From NCBI GenBank assembly GCA_943787795.1, contig CALSNU010000007.1, forward strand, positions 96,001 through 160,000: 64,000 bases of DNA, read 5' to 3'. Every line of letters starts with the position of its first letter. The first letter of the stretch is position 1. The notes under the pieces were generated by a model. It was given only the letters and a program-made list of their open reading frames with translations. It had not been told where the DNA came from and did no database searches. Of this stretch, positions 1 through 12,739 are shown piece by piece. Source of the stretch: an uncultured bacterium. Its GTDB lineage: Bacteria; Planctomycetota; UBA1135; GCA-002686595. Both the position numbers and the translations under genes were made by a program.

Positions 1-599
1 CGGCGCTGGGGGTCGTTCCACGCGTCTCTGGGCGCGTGCGGGTGCTGGGCGAAGACCCGGCACGCAGGCGCCGCCTGGTGGCGTATGTTCCGCAGCGGAC
101 GAGCGTCGACTGGGACTTCCCGACCTCGGTCCTCGACGTCGTCTTGATGGGCACCTACGGCCAGCTCGGCTGGTTCCGGCGCCCGGGCCGCAAGGAGCGC
201 GCTCTGGCCCTGCAAGCCCTCGAGCAGATGGAGATGGCGGATCTGGCGGGCCGGCAGATCGCCGAGCTGTCAGGCGGCCAGCAGCAGCGGGTCTTCCTCG
301 CACGCGCGCTGGTGCAGGACGCCGAGGTCTACTTCATGGACGAGCCCTTCGCCGGCGTGGACGCGGTGACAGAGCAGAGCATCGCCTCGCTCATGGGGCT
401 CCTCGCCCATCAGGGCAAGACCATCCTCTCCGTGCACCATGACCTCGCGACGGTGCCGCGCTACTTCGAACATGCGGTGCTGCTGAATCGGGTCGTCCAG
501 GCGGTCGGGACGGTCAAGGAGGTCTTCCACCGCAGCAATCTGGATCGCCTGTACGGGGGGCGCGTCCCCGCGAACGTCCCCGAGTTCGCGTCGTCATGA
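1..599 (+). CDS. Mn/Zn/Fe ABC transporter ATP-binding subunit (TroB/MntA-like), 5'-truncated by window edge
   Basis: AYVPQRTSVDWDFP, signature LSGGQQQRVFLARAL, Walker B YFMDEPFAGVD, H-loop VHHDL; frame open to window start. Confidence 0.93.
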   Translation, partial: ALGVVPRVSGRVRVLGEDPARRRRLVAYVPQRTSVDWDFPTSVLDVVLMGTYGQLGWFRRPGRKERALALQALEQMEMADLAGRQIAELSGGQQQRVFLARALVQDAEVYFMDEPFAGVDAVTEQSIASLMGLLAHQGKTILSVHHDLATVPRYFEHAVLLNRVVQAVGTVKEVFHRSNLDRLYGGRVPANVPEFASS

Positions 600-1528
600 G
601 CGCTCCGTGGGTCGACCTCGACCCGACCCTGGTCGTCGTGGCGGCGGGGACCACGACGGTGGGGGCGGTGAGCGGGGCCCTGGGTTGCTTCGCTTACCTC
701 CGGCGACAGGGGCTGGTTGGGGACGTGGTCTCGCACTCGGCGCTGCTCGGCGTCGTCGTCGCCTTCGTGCTCTCCCACGCGATCACGGGGAGCGCTTCGC
801 GGTCCCTCATGGTCCTTGTTCCAGGGGCGCTCATCGCGGGCACCGCGGCGCTGATGCTGGCGCGCTCCGTGTCGACCCGTACCCGGCTCAACGAAGACGC
901 GAGCCTGGGGGTGATGCTCTCGATCTTCTTCGGCGGGGGGCTCTTCCTGCTCCGCTGGGTGCAGCGGCAGAGCCCGCCCATCCCGGGGCATACGGGGCTC
1001 GAGGACTACCTCTTCGGGATGGCCGCCGCCATGACCCGGGCAGACCTGTGGATGATCTTCGCCCTCGGAGGCTGCGCCGTCGTGGTGCTGTTCCTCGCCT
1101 GGAAGGAGCTCAAGGTGTTCACGTTTGACCCTGACTTCTCCAGGAGCCTGGGCCTACCCTCGCGCGTGCTCGACACGCTGATGATGGCGCTGCTCGTGGC
1201 AGGCGTCGTGATCGGGATCCAGACGGTGGGGGTGATCCTGATGATCGCCCTCCTCGTGACGCCCGCGGCGGCGGCCCGTCAGTGGACCTCACGCCTGTCG
1301 ACCATGGCGCTGCTGGCGGCGGTGTTCGGCGCGGCCTCAGGAGCCGGCGGCGCGCTGTTGAGCGCCTCGGAGGCGGGTCTCCCCACAGGGCCGGTGGTGG
1401 TCCTCCTCGCAACAGCCATCTTCGCGCTGTCTCTCCTGCTGGCGCCGCAGCGCGGGGTAATCGCGCGCGCGCGCGCGCGCCGAGCCCTGCGTGACGTGCC
1501 GCCTCCGGCGGCGGGAGGGGCCTCGTGA
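596..1528 (+). CDS. Metal ABC transporter permease (ABC-3, TroC-like)
   Basis: Multi-TM protein; GDVVSHSALLG, KELKVFTFDPDF, GIQTVGVILM, PAAAARQWT; ATGA overlap with ATPase gene. Confidence 0.92.
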   Translation: MSAPWVDLDPTLVVVAAGTTTVGAVSGALGCFAYLRRQGLVGDVVSHSALLGVVVAFVLSHAITGSASRSLMVLVPGALIAGTAALMLARSVSTRTRLNEDASLGVMLSIFFGGGLFLLRWVQRQSPPIPGHTGLEDYLFGMAAAMTRADLWMIFALGGCAVVVLFLAWKELKVFTFDPDFSRSLGLPSRVLDTLMMALLVAGVVIGIQTVGVILMIALLVTPAAAARQWTSRLSTMALLAAVFGAASGAGGALLSASEAGLPTGPVVVLLATAIFALSLLLAPQRGVIARARARRALRDVPPPAAGGAS

Positions 1529-2589
1529 TCGAGTTCTGGACCCTGGCGATCGCGGCGGTGACCGCGCTGGCCTGCGCCCTCTCCGGGACCTTCCTCGTGC
1601 TCAAGCGCGAGGCGCTGGTCTCCGAGGGCCTGGCTCACGCGGTCCTCCCGGGGATCGTGATCGCCTATGCGCTGATCGGGGATCGGACCTCTCCGTTGCT
1701 GCTCGTTGGCGCCGCGGCCATGGGCCTCTTGATGATCCTCGCCGTCCAGGCCATTCGTCGGACGGGGGTGGTGGACTCCACGGCGTCGCTCGGCGTTGTG
1801 TTCCCCGCGCTCTTCAGCGTGGGCGTCCTCTTGACCAGCATGGATCTCGCGGGAACCTACTTCCACGCCGACTGCATCATCGAGGGGAACCTCGCCCTCG
1901 CGCCCCTCGATCGCCTCGAGCTCGGAGGCCGCGACCTGGGTCCGCGGGCTTTCTGGTCCGTCTCTGCCGCGCTGCTCCTCGTCGCCGGATTCGTGTTGCT
2001 CCTCTTCAAGGAGCTCAAGCTCTTGACCTTCGATCCTGAGCTGGCGGCCAGCCTCGGCTTCCGACCGAGTCGGATCCACGTGGCGTGGCTCGCGGTGGTG
2101 TCTTTCACCGTGGTCGCGTCCTTCGAGGCAGCCGGTTCGATCCTCGTTGTGGCCCTGATGATCGCGCCACCTGCAGCCGCGGTCCTGTGGGTGGACGACG
2201 TGCGGCATGTCCTCGGCCTGGCCGGTGTGTTCGCGCTGGTGAGCGCCGCCGTGGGACACGAGTTGGGGATGGCCTTGGATGTCGCCCCGGCGGGCCCGAT
2301 GGCCACCTCGGCGGGCGTCTTGTTCCTCGCGTCGCTGGCCCTCGCGCCGAGGGGCATCGTCATGAGGGGGCGCGCGCGTCGGAGCGTCCTGGCCCGTCTG
2401 GAGGTGGACCTGGTCGCGGCGCGGCTCCGATCGGGGTCGCCCAGGGACTCCGAGTCCGTGCGGGGTGAGCTGGGCTGGCCTCGCCGCCGCTTCGAGGCCG
2501 TCGTCGCCCGGGCGGTGTCCGGGGCCGCGCTCATCCATGATCCCGCGGCGGGGACCCTCCACCTCGCGGCGAGACCGGCGGGGAGTTGA
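1525..2589 (+). CDS. Metal ABC transporter permease (ABC-3, TroD-like) with C-terminal soluble extension
   Basis: GTFLVLKREALVSEGLAHAVLPG, KELKLLTFDPELA, ASFEAAGSILVVALMIAPP. Confidence 0.92.
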   Translation: MIEFWTLAIAAVTALACALSGTFLVLKREALVSEGLAHAVLPGIVIAYALIGDRTSPLLLVGAAAMGLLMILAVQAIRRTGVVDSTASLGVVFPALFSVGVLLTSMDLAGTYFHADCIIEGNLALAPLDRLELGGRDLGPRAFWSVSAALLLVAGFVLLLFKELKLLTFDPELAASLGFRPSRIHVAWLAVVSFTVVASFEAAGSILVVALMIAPPAAAVLWVDDVRHVLGLAGVFALVSAAVGHELGMALDVAPAGPMATSAGVLFLASLALAPRGIVMRGRARRSVLARLEVDLVAARLRSGSPRDSESVRGELGWPRRRFEAVVARAVSGAALIHDPAAGTLHLAARPAGS

Positions 2590-2650
2590 CCGCTGAAAGG
2601 ACCGTTCGGCGGTGGTCCAGGAGCAGGGCGCTCCCTATCCTCTGCGCCTC

Positions 2651-3761
2651 ATGTCACCCACCCCCGCCGACTACCGCGACCGTACGAAGGAGCTCCGCGG
2701 CAGACTCAGTCTGCTGACGGAGAGTCTTTGACTACCCCATCAAGCTGAAACGATTCGAGGAGATCGAGGAGCTGCAGGTCAGCCCCGACTTCTGGAATGA
2801 CCAGGACCAGAGCCAGAAGCTGGTCCGGGAGCTGAAGGGGCTCCGGCACGTGGTGGAGCCCGTCAGGAGCCTGGAGAGCGGCTTCGAAGAGGTCGAGCTC
2901 CTGCTGGAGATGGCCGAGGAAGGGGGTGAGCTCGAGGAGGTCTCCAGCGAGCTGGACGCCACCCTTGAGGGAGCGAAGGACACGCTCGACGACCTCGAGT
3001 TCAAGGTCATGCTCGGCGGGCCGAGCGATCAGATGGGGGCGTTCCTCCAGATCAGCGCTGGCGCCGGCGGGGTCGACGCCTGTGACTGGGCCTCGATGCT
3101 CATGCGCATGTACGTACGCTGGGCGGAGCGCCGCGAGTTCGACCTCACCCAGGTCGAGCTGAGCGAGGAGGACCAGGGCGGCATCCGCGGCGTGACGCTG
3201 CACATCGAGGGGCCCTACGCCTTCGGCTACCTGAAGGCCGAGACCGGCGTGCACCGGCTGGTTCGCATCAGCCCCTTCGACGCCCAGGCTCGTCGCCAGA
3301 CGGCCTTCGCCTCGGTGGACGTCACCCCTGCGACCGATGATTCGATCGAGATCGACATCAACGAGTCGGACGTCAAGGTGGACACCATGCGCGCGGGCGG
3401 CGCCGGTGGTCAGCACGTCAACAAGACCGAGTCGGCGGTCCGCCTGACGCACCTGCCGACCGGGATCGTCGTCCGCTGCCAGAACGAGCGCAGCCAGCAC
3501 AAGAACCGCGCCACGGCGTGGAGCATGCTGAAGGCCAAGATCCTCGCCATGGAGGAGGCCAAGCGCGACGCCGAGATGAGCAAGCTCTACGGCGAGAAGG
3601 GTGAGATCGCCTGGGGCAGCCAGATTCGCTCCTACGTGCTGAACCCGTACCAGATGGTCAAGGACCACCGGACCAACGTGGAGGAGGGCAACGTCCAGAA
3701 GGTGCTCGACGGTGAACTCGACCCCTTCATGGAAGCCTACCTCAAGCTGAAGAAGGGCTAG
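2651..3761 (+). CDS. prfB: Peptide chain release factor 2 with programmed +1 frameshift at CTT-TGA-C (2726-2732)
   Basis: ATG 2651 reads 26 codons to CTT TGA; +1 frame continues DYPIKLK...PDFWNDQ into ORF with SPF motif (RISPFD), GGQ ([12 protein letters not shown]), WGSQIRSY. Confidence 0.97.
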
Positions 3762-3830
3762 GGGCAACGAGGCGGCCGGAATCGGCGGCGGTGGGGTGGC
3801 AAGCCCCGCCGTGCGGACTAGGCTCCCCGC

Positions 3831-4223
3831 ATGAGCGCCTCCAGCCACCCCCACTTTGACGACCGCGGAACCCTGACCTGGTACACGACCATGGCGGAGG
3901 CGAAGGCCGCCGCCGCCGCGGAGGGGAAGAAGATCTTCATCGAGTTCGGGCGCGAACTCTGAAGCCAGTGCCGCAGCCTCGTGGAGGCTGTCATTCCCCG
4001 CCCTGACGTGGCGCCCATGCTCCAGGCCTGCTTCGTGGCCGTGGCCTCGGACTGCGATGAGCCGGAGGACGAGGTCATCGCCCTCGCCCAGAAGGTTGAG
4101 GACGCGATGATGCTGCCCTTCGTTCTCTTCGCCGATGCGGACGGGAACTACCTCGACGGGTACTCGGGGGTCGTGACGCCTCCGTACCTCATCAAGAAGC
4201 TCACCGAGTTCTCCGGCTCGTGA
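3831..4223 (+). CDS. Thioredoxin-fold selenoprotein with UxxC motif (Sec at TGA 3960-3962), 130 aa
   Basis: ATG 3831 reads ...[39 protein letters not shown]...; same frame continues to cis-Pro loop [15 protein letters not shown] falls at first Cys of CxxC; SECIS-like hairpin follows. Confidence 0.85.
3973..3991 (+). promoter_or_regulatory. Bacterial SECIS-like hairpin
   Basis: GCAGCCTC-GTG-GAGGCTGT: 8-bp stem, GUG loop, starts at the 11th nt after the in-frame UGA. Confidence 0.7.
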
Positions 4224-6433
4224 TGCTCGTCGCCCTCTGCGTCAGCGCGGCCCTCTCCATCCCGACCATGACCGGCGCCACGCCGCAGGATGACGAGCCC
4301 GCGCACGGCGTCAGGGCACCGCTACCCTCTCCAGAGGAGATCGCGGCGCTCCCGGCGGACGGCGGCGATGAGTTCAATCGGCTGGTCTTCTCTGGCAGCC
4401 CCTACCTCCTCCAGCACGCGCGCAACCCCGTGGACTGGCACGAGTGGGGCCCGGCGGCGTTCGAGCTCGCGGCCGAGCGCGGCGTGCCGGTGTTCCTCTC
4501 GATCGGCTACTCCACGTGCCACTGGTGCCACGTGATGGAGCACGAGAGCTTCGAGGACGCAGAGGTCGCGAGGCTCATGAACGAGGCGTTCGTGTGCGTC
4601 AAGCTCGACCGCGAGGAGCGGCCGGATATCGACCAGCTCTACATGTCGGTGACCCAGGCGCTCACGGGGAGCGGCGGCTGGCCGATGACCGTGGTCATGA
4701 CCCCGGACAAGCGCCCCTTCTTTGCGGGGACCTACTTCCCGAAGCAGTCCATCGGCCAGCGCTTCGGGATGCTCGAGCTCGTCCCCGCGCTCTCGACAGC
4801 GTGGAGCGAACGTCGTGAGGAGGTGCTGCAATCGGCGAAAGCGATCACCGAGGACCTCGCGGCGCGGGTGGCGGGTGCTCCAGGGGGCGACCTGACGGCG
4901 GAGCACCTCGCCGAGGGAGAGGCGGAGCTCTCCCGGCGCTTCGACAGCGCCCGGGGCGGCTTCGGCGCCGCCCGCAAGTTCCCCGTGCCTCACGAACAGA
5001 CCTTCCTCCTTCGGCGCCACGGCGCCACCGGCTCGGCTCGCGCCCTGGAGATGGTCGAGCGGACCCTGGGTGCCTGGCGCCTTGGCGGCGTGTTCGATCA
5101 GGTGGGCTTGGGGATCCACCGCTACTCCACGGACCCGAACTGGCTCGTCCCGCACTTCGAGAAGATGCTCTACGACCAGGCGCTCTGCAGCCTCGCCTAC
5201 GTGGACGCCTGGCTCGTGACTGGTGACGCCACGTATGAGCGCGCGGCCCGCGAGATCCTGGCGTACGTGAGCCGGGACATGACCTCGCCGGAGGGCGGCT
5301 TCTACTCGGCGGAGGATGCGGACAGCGAGGGGGAGGAGGGGCTCTTCTACCTCTGGACCGAGGCCGAGCTCGGCGAGGTGCTCGACGCCGAGGAGGCAGC
5401 GTTCGTACGGGAGCGCTTCCGGACCAGCGACGAGGGGAACTACCGGGACGAGGCGACCGGGGAGCGGACGGGCCGCAACGTGCTCCATCTCAATGCGCCC
5501 CTCTCCGACGCCGAGCGAGCGCGCTGGGACGTCATGAGGGCGCGGCTCTTCGAGGCCCGCGAGGGGCGGATCCACCCGCTCAAGGACGACAAGGTCCTCA
5601 CGGACTGGAACGGTCTGATGATCTCGGCCTTCGCGCGAGCTGGCCGCGCATTTGGCGACGAGGCCCTGGTGGCCACCGCTCGGCGGGCGGCGGACTTCGT
5701 GCTCTCGGAGCTGCGCACCGATTCAGGGCGGCTCCTGAAGCGCTGGCGTGGCGGGGAGGCGGGGCTCCACGGGATGCTCGAAGACCACGCGTTCCTGGCC
5801 CAGGGGCTCCTGGACCTCTTCGAGGCCTCCCACGAGGTCGCTTATCTCGTAGCCGCTCGTGAGATTGTCGACACCGCTGTCCTGCACTTCCATGACGACG
5901 AGGCTGGCGGGTTCTTCCTGAGTCCCGATGACGGTGAGGCGCTGCTGGTTCGCTCCAAGACCATCTATGACGGCGCGCGCCCCTCCGGCAACTCGGTCAT
6001 GGCCTGCACCCTCCAGCGGCTCTCACGGATGACCGGGGAGACGGGCTACGAGGAACTTGCCGCCGGCACCATTCGGGCCTTCAGTGCTCAGGTCGAGCAG
6101 AGCCCCAGCTACTCGACGCAGCTCCTGGCGGCCGTGGACTTTCAGACCTCCACGACCCGCGAGATCGTGGTCGTGGGTCCGCCGCAGGCGCCGGAGACAC
6201 GGGCCATGCTGGCCCTGCTCGCCCGCCGCTATGCGCCCAACGACGTGGTGTTGCTCCGTCCGCCCGGTGAGGAGGGTGCGTCGTTGGCCGCCGCCTGCCC
6301 CTTCACCGAGCCCCTCGTGCCGGTGGACAGCAAGGCCACAGCGTACGTGTGCACCAACTTCGCCTGCGCTGCGCCGGTGACGACGCTCGAGGCCCTGGCT
6401 GGACTCCTCGAGGATGGCGCCGCGGATCGCTGA
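4220..6433 (+). CDS. Thioredoxin domain-containing protein YyaL/SPATA20 family (DUF255 plus six-hairpin glycosidase-like domain), with N-terminal hydrophobic segment
   Basis: NRL...[64 protein letters not shown]. Confidence 0.95.
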
Positions 6434-6459
6434 GGGATCCGAGCACCTCACCAACGAGC

Positions 6460-6498
6460 GCGCCCCCCGCGCAGGCTGGTCGGCCTGCGCGGGGGCGC
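6460..6498. terminator. GC-rich hairpin between convergent genes (likely bidirectional terminator)
   Basis: gcgccccccgcgcaggct-ggtc-ggcctgcgcgggggcgc inverted repeat; no clear U tail. Confidence 0.55.
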
Positions 6499-6538
6499 AT
6501 TGGTTGGCTTCAGGCTCCGGGTCACCCGGAGGCTCCCA

Positions 6539-7750
6539 TCAGAGGAGCGGCACGGCGACGGCGCCGGTGAAGTTTGAGACGGCGCTGCCGCCGACGGAGT
6601 CGCGGTGCCAGGCCTGGAAGTTCCAGGTCTCGCCCGGCATGGCGGAGACGGAACCGGTCGGCGTCGGAAGGGCCCCCAGGTCGATCTCGAGGCTGAACGT
6701 GCCAGTGGACCCAGAGGACTGGATCTGGCCGGGGCCAACGTAGCGACCGATCGAGCCGCCGAGGCAGAGGTCACCCTGGCTGCCACCCGGGTTCGCCGTG
6801 AAGCCCTGCGTGTCGGAGACGAGGAAGAACCCGAAGGCGTTCTGCGGGAGCGAGGACGCGCGCAGCGTCATGTCGTGGTCGCCGATGAAGCGGCTTCCGT
6901 CGGCCTCGATCGCGCCGCCGACGCCGGTCGAGTTGATCGCACCGTTGCAGTAGACCGCGCCCGGATCGAGGGAGCGCGGGAGCCACGCCGCGGCGCTCGT
7001 GGATGTGGCGCCAGAGGCGTTGATGCCGTGCGGAGCGTCGTACGTCCCGGTGCCCAGGTTGAAGACCTGCGGCGGGAACGTCGGGTCGTCGTCGATGAGG
7101 TAGACCTTGTTGTTGCCGACCGTGCACCCGTCGACGTCGGCCGAGCCAGAGATGTAGGCGGAGCCGGGGACCGGGGTGGCCGTCCCGGCATCGATGTCGA
7201 TGGCTACGATCTCAAGGGCGATATCTTCAGGGGCGTAGAACAGGCCGTCTGCACGGTTGAAGCCCAGGCCGCTGATGGAGGCTGAGATGCCGTTCGTGCT
7301 GTAGGAGATGACCTGGGTCGCCACGAGCGTGTTGGGATCGAGCTCATAGAGACCGCGGGCCGTCGAGGGAGCGCCGAACGGCGGGAAGGCGAGCGCGAGG
7401 ATCAACCGGTCGTTGATGCTGTCGTAGCCCATGCCGTCCCAGCGGTAGAGGCCGCCGGTGTCGGTCACGATCGGGCCGACGTCGACGGGCCCATTGGGGC
7501 TCCCGTACTCCCACGTGGAGAGGCGACCGGGGGTGCCGCCGACCAGCCACATGAACTGCTCGGCGTCATTGGCTGCAGCACCAAAGACCTCGAACAGGTC
7601 GAACTGGAGCAGGGGGGAGACCGTGCCGGTCTCGACTTCTTCGAGGTAGGACTCTCCGAAGGAGAAGCCACCGTAGAGCTGAGCAGAGGCCGGGGCGCAG
7701 AGGGCGAAGGCCAGCAGGGAGGAGCCGGCGACAGTGATGGTGGAGTTCAT
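6539..7750 (-). CDS. Secreted beta-rich (propeller-like) protein with conserved ~140-aa C-terminal domain
   Basis: Signal peptide MNSTITVAGSSLLAFALCAPASAQ; repeated blade-like segments (GMGYD, GLGFN); C-terminus PGGSQGDLCLGGSIGR...GETWNFQAWHRD shared with 19525-22176. Confidence 0.8.
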   Translation of the reverse strand: MNSTITVAGSSLLAFALCAPASAQLYGGFSFGESYLEEVETGTVSPLLQFDLFEVFGAAANDAEQFMWLVGGTPGRLSTWEYGSPNGPVDVGPIVTDTGGLYRWDGMGYDSINDRLILALAFPPFGAPSTARGLYELDPNTLVATQVISYSTNGISASISGLGFNRADGLFYAPEDIALEIVAIDIDAGTATPVPGSAYISGSADVDGCTVGNNKVYLIDDDPTFPPQVFNLGTGTYDAPHGINASGATSTSAAAWLPRSLDPGAVYCNGAINSTGVGGAIEADGSRFIGDHDMTLRASSLPQNAFGFFLVSDTQGFTANPGGSQGDLCLGGSIGRYVGPGQIQSSGSTGTFSLEIDLGALPTPTGSVSAMPGETWNFQAWHRDSVGGSAVSNFTGAVAVPLL

Positions 7751-7923
7751 ATGGAGGAGGGAGCGGGGGCTCGGGCGTGTCGGGACTCTTGGCCCGAGCT
7801 GGGGATGTAGCCGAATACGGATTCGCAATAATCAGGTGGTGAGCGTATCACCAATTTCGAACTCTGGAGAAGTTTCTGGAAACCTTGACCTCGCACCTGG
7901 CCGGTCTGGGGGATGATCTTGAC

Positions 7924-9177: not shown

Positions 9178-9534
9178 TCAGCGGTTCATCCACCAGCCCA
9201 TGGCGACCGCGCTCGCGAGGAGCAGCATGGGCTGCCCGACGCGAAAGACCGCCTTCTGGGTCTTGTGCCTGAGGGACTGCATGGCGAGCACCCCCGCCAG
9301 CCCCCCGCCAAGGAGCGAGAGGAGGTGGAGCGTCCACTCGGGCACCCGGAAGCCCTCGCGCCGAGCCTGTCGCTTGTCGACCCACCAGACCGGATAGGTC
9401 ACCAGGTTGATCCCGATCCACCAGCCGATCAGCAGGGCCCCGCCGACGTACTTGTGAAAGACCCACCCGATGGCGGTCGCGATGAGGAGCGCGGGCAAGA
9501 GGGTGTAGCGGACAGGGTGGGCTCGCAGGCTCAT
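9178..9534 (-). CDS. DUF1294 membrane protein
   Basis: INLVTY..WWVDKRQARREGFRVPEWTLHLLSLLGG..G..AMQSLRHKTQK; ATG 9534 overlaps HNH stop (ATGA). Confidence 0.88.
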   Translation of the reverse strand: MSLRAHPVRYTLLPALLIATAIGWVFHKYVGGALLIGWWIGINLVTYPVWWVDKRQARREGFRVPEWTLHLLSLLGGGLAGVLAMQSLRHKTQKAVFRVGQPMLLLASAVAMGWWMNR

Positions 9535-10124
9535 GATGCTTCGACCCAGTTTTGTTCGCCGATGAAGCGTCGCCACGCAGCGGGCTTCTCGGCGCCCGTC
9601 ACCTCGAAGATGGGTGACCAGGCGGGGGGCTTGGGTTCCTGGAGGAGGATCATGCCGACCTCGGAGGCCAGCTTGTTGCCCTTCCGGCGATTGCATCGAA
9701 GGCAGGCGAGGACACAGTTGGCCCAGGAGGTCTCGCCGCCCTTGGAGCGCGGGATGACGTGGTCCACCGACAGCTGCGCCTGGCCCGGCTGCTTCCCGCA
9801 GTACTGGCATCTGGAGAGGTCTCGGCGGATCAGGTTCTTGCGAGTGAACGGCAGGGATTGCCTGGGGATGCCGCTGAAGGAGTTCAGGACGATCACCTCC
9901 GGGACTCGGAGCTCGAGCCGCACGGTCGAGATGGACAGCTCCCCCTCGGGAACCTCCAGCCCAGACCAGCTCTGGAAGTCATGGACCTCAAAGGTGTCTG
10001 GCTGGACGACCATGGCGGCCTCGGAGTAGAGGAGCCGCAGAGCGTTCCTCACGGGGGTGGACGCGATGGCCAGCCAGGCGCGATTCAGCACCAGCGTGTC
10101 TCGGCAAAGCGCTGAGTCCGTCAT
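9531..10124 (-). CDS. HNH endonuclease (McrA/HNH_5-like)
   Basis: LVLN..., RKNLIRRD..CQYCG, SVDHVIPRSKGG..SWANCVLACLRCNRRK. Confidence 0.92.
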   Translation of the reverse strand: MTDSALCRDTLVLNRAWLAIASTPVRNALRLLYSEAAMVVQPDTFEVHDFQSWSGLEVPEGELSISTVRLELRVPEVIVLNSFSGIPRQSLPFTRKNLIRRDLSRCQYCGKQPGQAQLSVDHVIPRSKGGETSWANCVLACLRCNRRKGNKLASEVGMILLQEPKPPAWSPIFEVTGAEKPAAWRRFIGEQNWVEAS

Positions 10125-10345
10125 GGCTTGCGGCGGACCTCGGCGCGCCCTGAGCCAAGGCTCGGTGTCCACTGTTCCTCCTGAGCTCCGCCCATGCCTC
10201 CAGGATAGGTCGAAGGGGCCGGTGATTCATGGTCGGAGACCAGGCTGTCGCAGGCAGCCCCGCACGTCGTCTGAAGCGGGCGGGCAGGCCGATCGAGCGC
10301 TCCCACGTAGTGGATGCTGCCCAGGGTCCTTAGATTGGGAGGCAG

Positions 10346-11017: not shown

Positions 11018-11155
11018 TTGGACTCGACCTACGGCCGATGCCGTCAGCGCGAGGATCAGGGCGCGCCGAATCGTTGGGCCGCGTTACGATGGTCCCTCGC
11101 TTCGTCTCGCTTGAACTCCATCACTGACCGCGGCCCGGGTGGGCCCGGAACCCCC

Positions 11156-12739
11156 ATGTCACGACCGATTCACCGCGCACTGATCTCCGTCTCCGACAAG
11201 AGCGGCCTCGAGAACTTCGCCCGCCAGCTCGCGGACTACGGGGTGGAGCTGCTCTCCACCGGGGGCACCTACCGGGCGCTCGAGGAGGCGGGAATCACCG
11301 TCACGGAGGTGAGCGAGCACACGGGCTTCCCGGAGATGATGGACGGTCGGGTCAAGACCCTTCACCCCACGATCCACGGGGGCCTGCTGTCCGTGAGGGA
11401 CAACGTCGCGCACGTGGCGGCAATGGACGAGCACAAGATCGCGCCGATCGATCTGCTCGTGGTCAACCTCTACCCCTTCGAGGCGACCATCGCGCGCGAG
11501 GGCGCGACCCGGGACGAGTGCGTGGAGCAGATCGACATCGGCGGCCCCGCGATGGTGCGCTCCGCCGCGAAGAACCACCGCTTCGTCGCCGTCGTCACGG
11601 AGCCGGAGCTCTACGGGCGCGTGCTGGATGAGCTCGCCACCAACGAGGGGGGGATGAGCGACGGCTTCCGGCGCGAGCTCGCCCAGCGGGCCTTCTCTCG
11701 TACCGCGGCCTATGACACGGCCATCTCCACTTGGATGTTCCAGCAGGACCACGAGGAGGCCTCGGAGGAGGCCTTCGCGAGCACCTTCGCCCTCGCGGGC
11801 TCGAAGCAGATGGAGCTTCGCTATGGCGAGAACCCCCACCAGAAGGCGGCGTTCTATCGCACCGAGCCCCGCCCCGAGCCTTGCGCGGCCCACGCTGAGG
11901 TCCTGAACGGGAAGGCGCTCTCCTACAACAACCTCGTGGACCTCGACGCGGCTCACGCGCTCGCGGCGGAGTTCGACGGGCCCTTTGTCAGCGTCATCAA
12001 GCACACCAACCCCTGCGGGGCGGCCGAGGGAGCGTCGATCTCGGAGGCGCTCGAGCGCGCCTGGTCAGGCGACCCCATCAGCGCCTTCGGCTCGGTGCTC
12101 GCGTTCACCCGCCCCCTGGACCTGGCCTGCGCCACATTCCTGGTCGAGGGCAATCGCTTCGTCGAGGCGATCATCGCACCGGACTTTGATGACGACGCCT
12201 TCGAGCTGCTGACCCGCAAGCCGAAGTGGGGCAAGAGCGTGAGGCTCCTGGCCTGCGGCGCCTTCGGCCCCTCGTCCCGAGCGGGCGACCAGTACGAGGT
12301 GAAGAAGCTCGCGGGTGGCTTCCTGGTTCAAGACCGTGACCTGTCGATCGAGACCGAGTTTCAGGCGGCCGGTGAGGCTTCGGCGTCAGCGGACCAGCTC
12401 TCCGAGCTCGCGTTCGCGAACAAGATCTCCAAGCACGTCAAGTCCAACGCGATCGTGCTGACGAGTGACCGCACGGTCGTCGGCGTCGGAGCTGGCCAGA
12501 TGAGCCGCGTGGATTCCGTGAGGATCGCCGCCCACAAGGCGGGCGACCGGGCGTCGGGGTCGGTCCTCGCCAGTGATGCGTTCTTCCCGTTCCCCGATGG
12601 GGTCGAGGCGGCCATTGACGTCGGCGTCGCGGCGATCGTTCAGCCCGGCGGTTCTGTCCGGGACGCCGAGGTCGTGAAGGCGGCTGACGCCAAGGGGGTG
12701 CCCATGCTCTTCTCGGGCGCCCGTCACTTCCGCCATTGA
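11156..12739 (+). CDS. purH: Bifunctional AICAR formyltransferase / IMP cyclohydrolase
   Basis: RALISVSDKSGL, GRVKTLHP, IDIGGP, LRYGENPHQ, KHVKSNAI, SDAFFPF, RHFRH. Confidence 0.98.
   Translation: MSRPIHRALISVSDKSGLENFARQLADYGVELLSTGGTYRALEEAGITVTEVSEHTGFPEMMDGRVKTLHPTIHGGLLSVRDNVAHVAAMDEHKIAPIDLLVVNLYPFEATIAREGATRDECVEQIDIGGPAMVRSAAKNHRFVAVVTEPELYGRVLDELATNEGGMSDGFRRELAQRAFSRTAAYDTAISTWMFQQDHEEASEEAFASTFALAGSKQMELRYGENPHQKAAFYRTEPRPEPCAAHAEVLNGKALSYNNLVDLDAAHALAAEFDGPFVSVIKHTNPCGAAEGASISEALERAWSGDPISAFGSVLAFTRPLDLACATFLVEGNRFVEAIIAPDFDDDAFELLTRKPKWGKSVRLLACGAFGPSSRAGDQYEVKKLAGGFLVQDRDLSIETEFQAAGEASASADQLSELAFANKISKHVKSNAIVLTSDRTVVGVGAGQMSRVDSVRIAAHKAGDRASGSVLASDAFFPFPDGVEAAIDVGVAAIVQPGGSVRDAEVVKAADAKGVPMLFSGARHFRH

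Follow-up and report, generated by a model that had tools for sequence, protein, structure and literature searches.

The window analysed here, a stretch of 64,000 nucleotides from the assembly of an uncultured planctomycete (contig CALSNU010000007.1), carries at positions 3831-4223 a gene that we interpret as encoding one 130-residue selenoprotein, a predicted cytoplasmic disulfide reductase of the thioredoxin type; we put the probability of this reading at about 0.8. The UGA at codon 44 of this gene is, judging from sequence comparisons, almost certainly recoded as selenocysteine (Sec). The basis of the Sec reading is the frame of the gene, an alignment column that holds only Cys and TGA codons, a covarying RNA hairpin, the Sec machinery of the genome and the predicted fold of the product.

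The in-frame TGA and the hairpin behind it

The frame opens with ATG 3831, runs through a lone in-frame TGA (codon 44) and ends with a terminal TGA at 4221-4223, and its read-through product has the active-site motif U-S-Q-C. The list of open reading frames (ORFs) for this locus held only an 80-residue, GTG-started fragment (3981-4223). An earlier note, made from the sequence alone, had joined this fragment to the upstream ATG across a single TGA, and translation confirms the common frame. One TGA within the match is kept in all 17 genomes of the same genus (a group that overlaps with the set of 76 loci described below), and position 3960 is also covered by contigs of two DNA runs (X6 and X13) that belong to separate studies and list no differing letter at this position. 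The codon is thus not the product of chance or of assembly error, and the TGC, TGT or TGG that the note had named as fatal to its proposal does not appear at this site in these contigs, which come from other runs and are not raw reads.

The comparison of codon 44 across relatives bears out the expectation that homologs would carry either Cys or TGA there, with conservation on both sides. Among 76 related loci from the genome collection (L120, a 36% match, was left out) the codon is TGA in 45, TGC in 27 and TGT in the remaining 4. At the protein level, among the best 120 of 328 matches, residue 44 is Cys in 118, the other two being 80-residue fragments that start past the site; neither Trp nor any other residue was found in these sets. 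An evenly drawn phylum sample (401 genomes, this one included) contains the family in 45 genomes; 23 of the 50 matches contain a single TGA, and among the best 30 matches, for which the codon position was checked, it is TGA in 18 and Cys in 12. Synonymous changes outnumber replacement changes in the upstream half among TGA-type relatives, so this half is coding, and both halves are under purifying selection. In an alignment of 73 rows H6, P7, F9 and D11 of the N-terminal HPHFDD motif show no variation, and neither do L95 and P96, which gives the family an overall signature of HPHFDD...GRxx(U/C)xxC...LP.

A hairpin of the bacterial selenocysteine insertion sequence (SECIS) type lies 11-29 bases 3' of the UGA, with a stem of 7-8 bp, a spacing of 17-18 nucleotides and a folding energy of -12.0 to -12.6 kcal/mol; the GUG of its loop (3981-3983) is the false GTG start of the 80-residue fragment. 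The bacterial SECIS model given in section 5 of PMC13188914 specifies a loop of 3-9 nucleotides, a stem of 4-16 bp, a G in the first two loop positions, a distance of 16-37 nucleotides from the UGA and a minimum free energy of at most -7.5 kcal/mol, and the hairpin agrees with every constraint of that section. The complete seven-pair stem is found in 36 of 40 unique TGA sequences versus 2 of 31 Cys sequences. In a covariation set of 29 TGA rows, comprising the window and 28 of the 45 TGA loci hand-picked for diversity, 97.5% of cells are paired and 30 cells have changed on both sides, a result equalled by none of 500 shuffles; the corresponding figures for all 31 Cys rows are 64.5% of cells paired and 278 of 500 shuffles. 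In the phylum sample all seven pairs are present in 17 of 18 TGA genes and in none of 12 Cys genes (partly the same genes as above). When the gene is compared with 16 close TGA relatives, synonymous changes are about ten times rarer over the hairpin region (4 of 160 codons) than upstream (139 of 608) or downstream (278 of 1120) of it, and only about 1% of 2000 random synonymous recodings match the hairpin of the window. The coordinated variation of residues 49 and 53 (S/A, S/G, A/G, A/S, T/G) preserves the stem, which implies that here the SECIS element dictates the protein sequence. Judged by these comparisons, the predicted hairpin, on which the earlier note is silent, provides strong added support for Sec recoding.

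The genome encodes what such recoding would need. SelA, selB, selD and the gene for tRNA-Sec (selC), whose presence the earlier note had left to be checked, were all found, each above its family cut-off; the tRNA-Sec has the anticodon UCA and is the only UCA tRNA detected by ARAGORN, and selD itself contains an in-frame TGA, at CAG-U-AAK (a UxxK site). SelA was detected in all but one of the genomes that have the family (44 of 45); the exception is 84% complete and has the TGA form.

The read-through product matches Pfam PF13899 (Thioredoxin_7) with 43.6 bits (cut-off 27) over residues 16-103, spanning the TGA, and its AlphaFold model reaches a predicted local distance difference test (pLDDT) value of 94, in accord with the suggestion that it forms a complete thioredoxin-like fold. 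The model places a strand at residues 34-40, U44 just ahead of a helix at 45-54, and L95 and P96 immediately ahead of a strand at 97-101; a thioredoxin fold is recognized by a Pro loop and by a (C/U)xxC motif that opens the first core helix, and the model shows both. The alignment by eye that had set the TGA against the nucleophilic Cys of the neighboring YyaL protein was reproduced by BLASTP (26% identity over 69 residues, E 3e-5), which pairs codon 44 with the first Cys of CHWC. Glu38, six residues ahead of the Sec, sits at what we take to be the position of the buried acid Asp26 in E. coli thioredoxin.

Predicted activity and competing interpretations

Thiol/selenol-disulfide redox activity is the probable function of the protein. 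By analogy with E. coli, SelB bound to the hairpin would bring in Sec-tRNA(UCA), with release factor 2 as its competitor. The U44 selenolate would then attack a substrate disulfide, Cys47, assisted by the conserved Glu38, would resolve the adduct to a selenenylsulfide, and the latter would be re-reduced by the NADPH/thioredoxin reductase system of the cell. TrxB itself has about an even chance of being the reductant. The invariant HPHFDD motif together with G40-R41 probably forms a substrate-recognition surface, as far as conservation can indicate. Both trxB and, at another site, a separate canonical trxA are present in the genome, therefore the selenoprotein is likely a specialized reductase.

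Several observations weigh against this interpretation. The stability of the hairpin is not significant in comparison with dinucleotide shuffles (z -0.50, and z -1.43 with 16 of 200 shuffles), and for this reason the case for a SECIS element is built on covariation and synonymous constraint. SelA was detected in 290 of the 401 genomes of the phylum sample, so that its co-occurrence with the family lends weak support; judged by this gene, Sec use is widespread in the sampled Planctomycetota. The neighbors prfB, purH and yyaL indicate no pathway. Finally, two RNA contigs (X15 and X16; two runs, one study) extend over both halves of the gene and leave a gap at 3940-4011 that includes the Sec codon and the hairpin. 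As contigs from a single study they count as evidence for neither expression nor cleavage; DNA contigs continue across the region where the RNA contigs break, a difference too weak to interpret. A scan of positions 2550-6700 found neither a sigma-70 promoter nor a terminator, which is uninformative given the 69% G+C content.

The strongest competitor of the reductase reading is a selenoprotein with another role, in which U44 and C47 together with a His/Asp cluster (HPHFDD, D74, D76) would bind or pass on a metal or selenium species, or in which the protein would be a redox-regulated binding partner similar to ERp18, AGR or UAS domains. We regard this as unlikely, given that conservation of both CxxC positions, of the acid at -6 and of the Pro96 loop follows the pattern of catalytic thioredoxin folds, and that metal-handling genes do not recur in the neighborhood except for the ABC permeases of close relatives.

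A further and rather doubtful proposal, compatible with Sec insertion, is that the gene acts as a selenium switch. Its stop codon overlaps the start of yyaL, hence ribosomes would reach yyaL only after Sec had been inserted at codon 44, and release factor 2, the competitor for UGA, is encoded directly upstream. If this were true, selenium supply would set the output of YyaL, a related thioredoxin-domain protein of the Cys type, and the repeated Sec-to-Cys switches in Sec-capable genomes would alter control as well as catalysis.

It is very improbable that the TGA is a true stop, leaving either a pseudogene or two small proteins of 43 and 80 residues. Both fragments have indeed been called as proteins in public collections, where they form clusters of 20 and 17 members, but a TGA at the position of the catalytic Cys occurs in 45 loci dispersed over the tree, selection acts on both halves, the covariation of the hairpin is limited to TGA-bearing genes, and in the model a stop at this point would separate strand 34-40 from helix 45-54 and so break up the fold. 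Still less credible is a genome-wide reassignment of TGA to Trp or Gly, suppressor read-through as Cys, or a sequencing error: TGA is the normal terminal stop of the gene in 35 of 44 TGA-type loci (L092, which contains a run of N, was omitted), release factor 2 is encoded next door, the sole UCA tRNA detected by ARAGORN is tRNA-Sec, no homolog has Trp or Gly at codon 44, and the contigs of other studies retain the TGA.

Distribution, genomic neighborhood and other candidates

The family is found mainly in Planctomycetota, with a few members in Acidobacteriota; its nearest relatives in named cultured species are those of Saltatorellus ferox Poly30 (80% identity, TGA) and Engelhardtia mirabilis Pla133 (58%, TGC). 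The S. ferox gene (Poly30_05560 / WP_419190883.1) is annotated in RefSeq and UniProt as a 43-residue hypothetical protein, which, together with the two fragment clusters, agrees with the earlier remark that such genes are routinely misannotated. Where checked, annotation has split the gene family in two, and read-through corrects these entries; the family adds a small, well-folded predicted selenoprotein for which a cultured host exists. A profile search of 1.84 billion representatives revealed two shapes of the family. One is short and has no signal peptide; the other, the long form, has an N-terminus that resembles a signal and carries a C-terminal extension, which often ends in RG(T/S)RW. 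TGA together with the same hairpin is also used by members of the long form (L086, L089, L094, L119, L194-L196, L199 and L201), in which about 240-270 residues follow the Sec/Cys site.

A tree of 75 loci, built from only 124 columns with L092 omitted and the Sec/Cys site masked, requires 17 changes of the Sec/Cys label (bootstrap range 15-18), of which at least 10 are forced by well-supported branches. Two Cys genes that branch as sisters of TGA genes, L051 and L056, retain the full stem, which suggests recent Sec-to-Cys changes. The presence of selA in nearly all family-bearing genomes indicates that Cys forms arise in genomes that still have this gene, with the proviso that related genomes are not independent. 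Loss of the Sec trait was considered as the cause of the Cys forms and ruled out, as selA is present in all 22 genomes whose match had no stop. With at least 10 switches, nearly all in selA-bearing genomes, the family offers a clean natural test of Sec versus Cys.

Within 4 kb of the 76 loci we found prfB in 26 cases, purH in 23 and yyaL in 18, surroundings that look like a stable housekeeping block and not a pathway. The stop/start overlap with yyaL recurs in frame in at least 11 of the 16 loci in which a YyaL motif was found, all of them close relatives, and the CxxC of YyaL (CHWC) is never TGA in the loci checked. A fixed partnership with yyaL in general was rejected on the count of 18 in 76 and because YyaL looks exported and the selenoprotein does not. 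ORF finders call the start of prfB, which has a programmed +1 frameshift site, at 2850. In further stretches of the window (36-2589, 6539-7828, 9531-10172 and 11018-12739) we recognized by eye a metal ABC transporter (ATPase and two permeases), a minus-strand gene for an exported protein of the repeat type, an HNH-like gene, and purH.

Of 266 genomic sites screened for an in-frame TGA combined with a SECIS-like hairpin, 45 were retained; candidates are collected as L127-L141. About 17 of the genes look real by eye, several of them without a curated model. They include SelD, two TlpA/redoxin-like proteins (UGPC), a Trx7 protein (UGWC), DsbD (UVVC), an AhpD-like protein (CHYU), a PrdB/GrdB-like protein (UPMC) and a heavy-metal-associated domain protein (UGAGC). 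For the candidate double selenoprotein in L127 there is no Pfam or NCBIfam match at E<=1e-4. Three FG-GAP/ASPIC-UnbV paralogs share D(L/T)-TGA-S-x-(F/Y)-W (L137, C8:5572; L138, C1:1248719; L139, C3:277088), have a hairpin loop 18 nucleotides 3' of the TGA, and retain the TGA in many relatives; candidates of this type are listed in Table S9 of Kim et al. 2016 (PMC4807772).

Table 1. Positions and supporting evidence of the predicted gene, its elements, its neighbors and further candidates (window coordinates unless a locus is given; homolog counts are among the best 120 of 328 protein matches)
Feature	Position	Strand	Evidence or remark
Predicted thioredoxin-fold selenoprotein gene, 130 residues, without signal peptide	3831..4223	+	Translation, Pfam, full-length homologs, AlphaFold model
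Family signature HPHFDD, codons 6-11, 5' of TGA	3846..3863	+	73-row alignment
Glu38, six residues ahead of Sec	3942..3944	+	E in 109, D in 8 of 118 full-length homologs
In-frame TGA, predicted Sec codon U44, first position of UxxC	3960..3962	+	Codon column of homologs
Cys47, predicted resolving cysteine	3969..3971	+	Cys in 118 of 118 full-length homologs
Predicted bacterial SECIS-type hairpin	3973..3991	+	Stem 3973-3979 / 3985-3991, loop C-GUG-G 3980-3984; folding, covariation, synonymous constraint
Pro96 of M-L-P-F, likely cis-proline of the thioredoxin fold	4116..4118	+	Invariance and model position, from which a cis conformation is presumed
prfB (release factor 2), upstream neighbor	2651..3761	+	Pfam PCRF and RF-1; programmed +1 frameshift site CTT TGA C 2726-2732
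YyaL/DUF255 protein, downstream neighbor, CHWC, signal-like N-terminus	4220..6433	+	PF03190, 243 bits; start overlaps selenoprotein stop
Candidate double selenoprotein, signal-like N-terminus	L127:290-1087 (C4:265189-265986)	-	TGAs at SGKG-U-S and TPGLT-U-S, a hairpin for each
Candidate selenoprotein NGHPLGCT-U	L135:87-1421	-	No NCBIfam match
Candidate selenoprotein CQGVPGVW-U	L141:101-1381	+	No NCBIfam match
Candidate selenoprotein SGYI-U-IC, weak DsbD_N match	L129:189-1838	+	No NCBIfam match
Candidate FG-GAP selenoprotein NNW-U-C	L131:121-1425	-	No NCBIfam match

Relationship to catalogued families

The earlier note had further proposed that the family might be uncatalogued, and this holds for NCBIfam 20.0, in which no model reaches its cut-off with the window protein, and the 73 aligned members give weak matches to the same models (best E 2e-8). 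It also holds, by signature, for Table 1 of PMC13188914 (119 families), which in its accessible form has no entry with the family signature; the broad PF13098 UxxC entry of that table could nevertheless absorb the family. Literature searches found no description of the family. Planctomycetes go unmentioned in the main text of the 2026 review on prokaryotic selenoproteomes and in the accessible parts of deep-Sep (PMC12013277), SelCysML (PMC13745706) and Haft and Gwadz (10.1101/2022.07.06.499078). The accessible part of BSepDB (PMC13326102) includes the Poly30 genome among those examined, and Table S9 of Kim et al. 2016 lists, under IMG identifiers, two thioredoxin-like candidates without a SECIS in planctomycete P1.

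With the PF13098 UxxC entry, as far as its description goes, the family shares the thioredoxin fold, the Sec-first UxxC, the SECIS within the ORF and many Cys homologs, and it has a signature of its own; the entry's representative is WP_011366075.1. The window protein scores 26 bits with PF13098, just short of the cut-off of 27, and most homologs carry precomputed matches to this domain. The best NCBIfam match, hit by all 73 family members, is the Trx7/PDZ (seleno)protein NF041199, which has the same type of Pfam domain (Thioredoxin_7); the window protein, however, reaches only 24.6 bits against a cut-off of 300 and thus falls outside that family, and while NF041199 is a 390-position model with PDZ in its name and CxxU (Sec second), our protein is UxxC and has 130 residues. 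Nor does it belong to canonical TrxA, as there is no match to TIGR01068 and none to PF00085 at E<=0.1. The N-terminal thioredoxin domain of YyaL/DUF255 (PF03190; PDB 7tkv, 3ira) shows 15-18% identity in structural alignment, but there the domain is followed by a long C-terminal part (about 700 residues in total), whereas the selenoprotein stands alone; PF03190 gives 30.3 bits with it, over residues 15-80 only, versus 243 bits with the downstream neighbor, and the protein is therefore not a member of that family either. The DsbD gamma domain, DsbH, the Thermus thioredoxin 2lst (phmmer E 3e-7) and ERp18/AGR have the same fold (Foldseek template modeling score 0.6-0.7), but are at most 25% identical to the selenoprotein, the short form of which lacks an export signal. 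For the family as a whole we found no curated model; it is an instance of a well-known kind of selenoprotein, UxxC thioredoxin folds being the commonest in bacteria.
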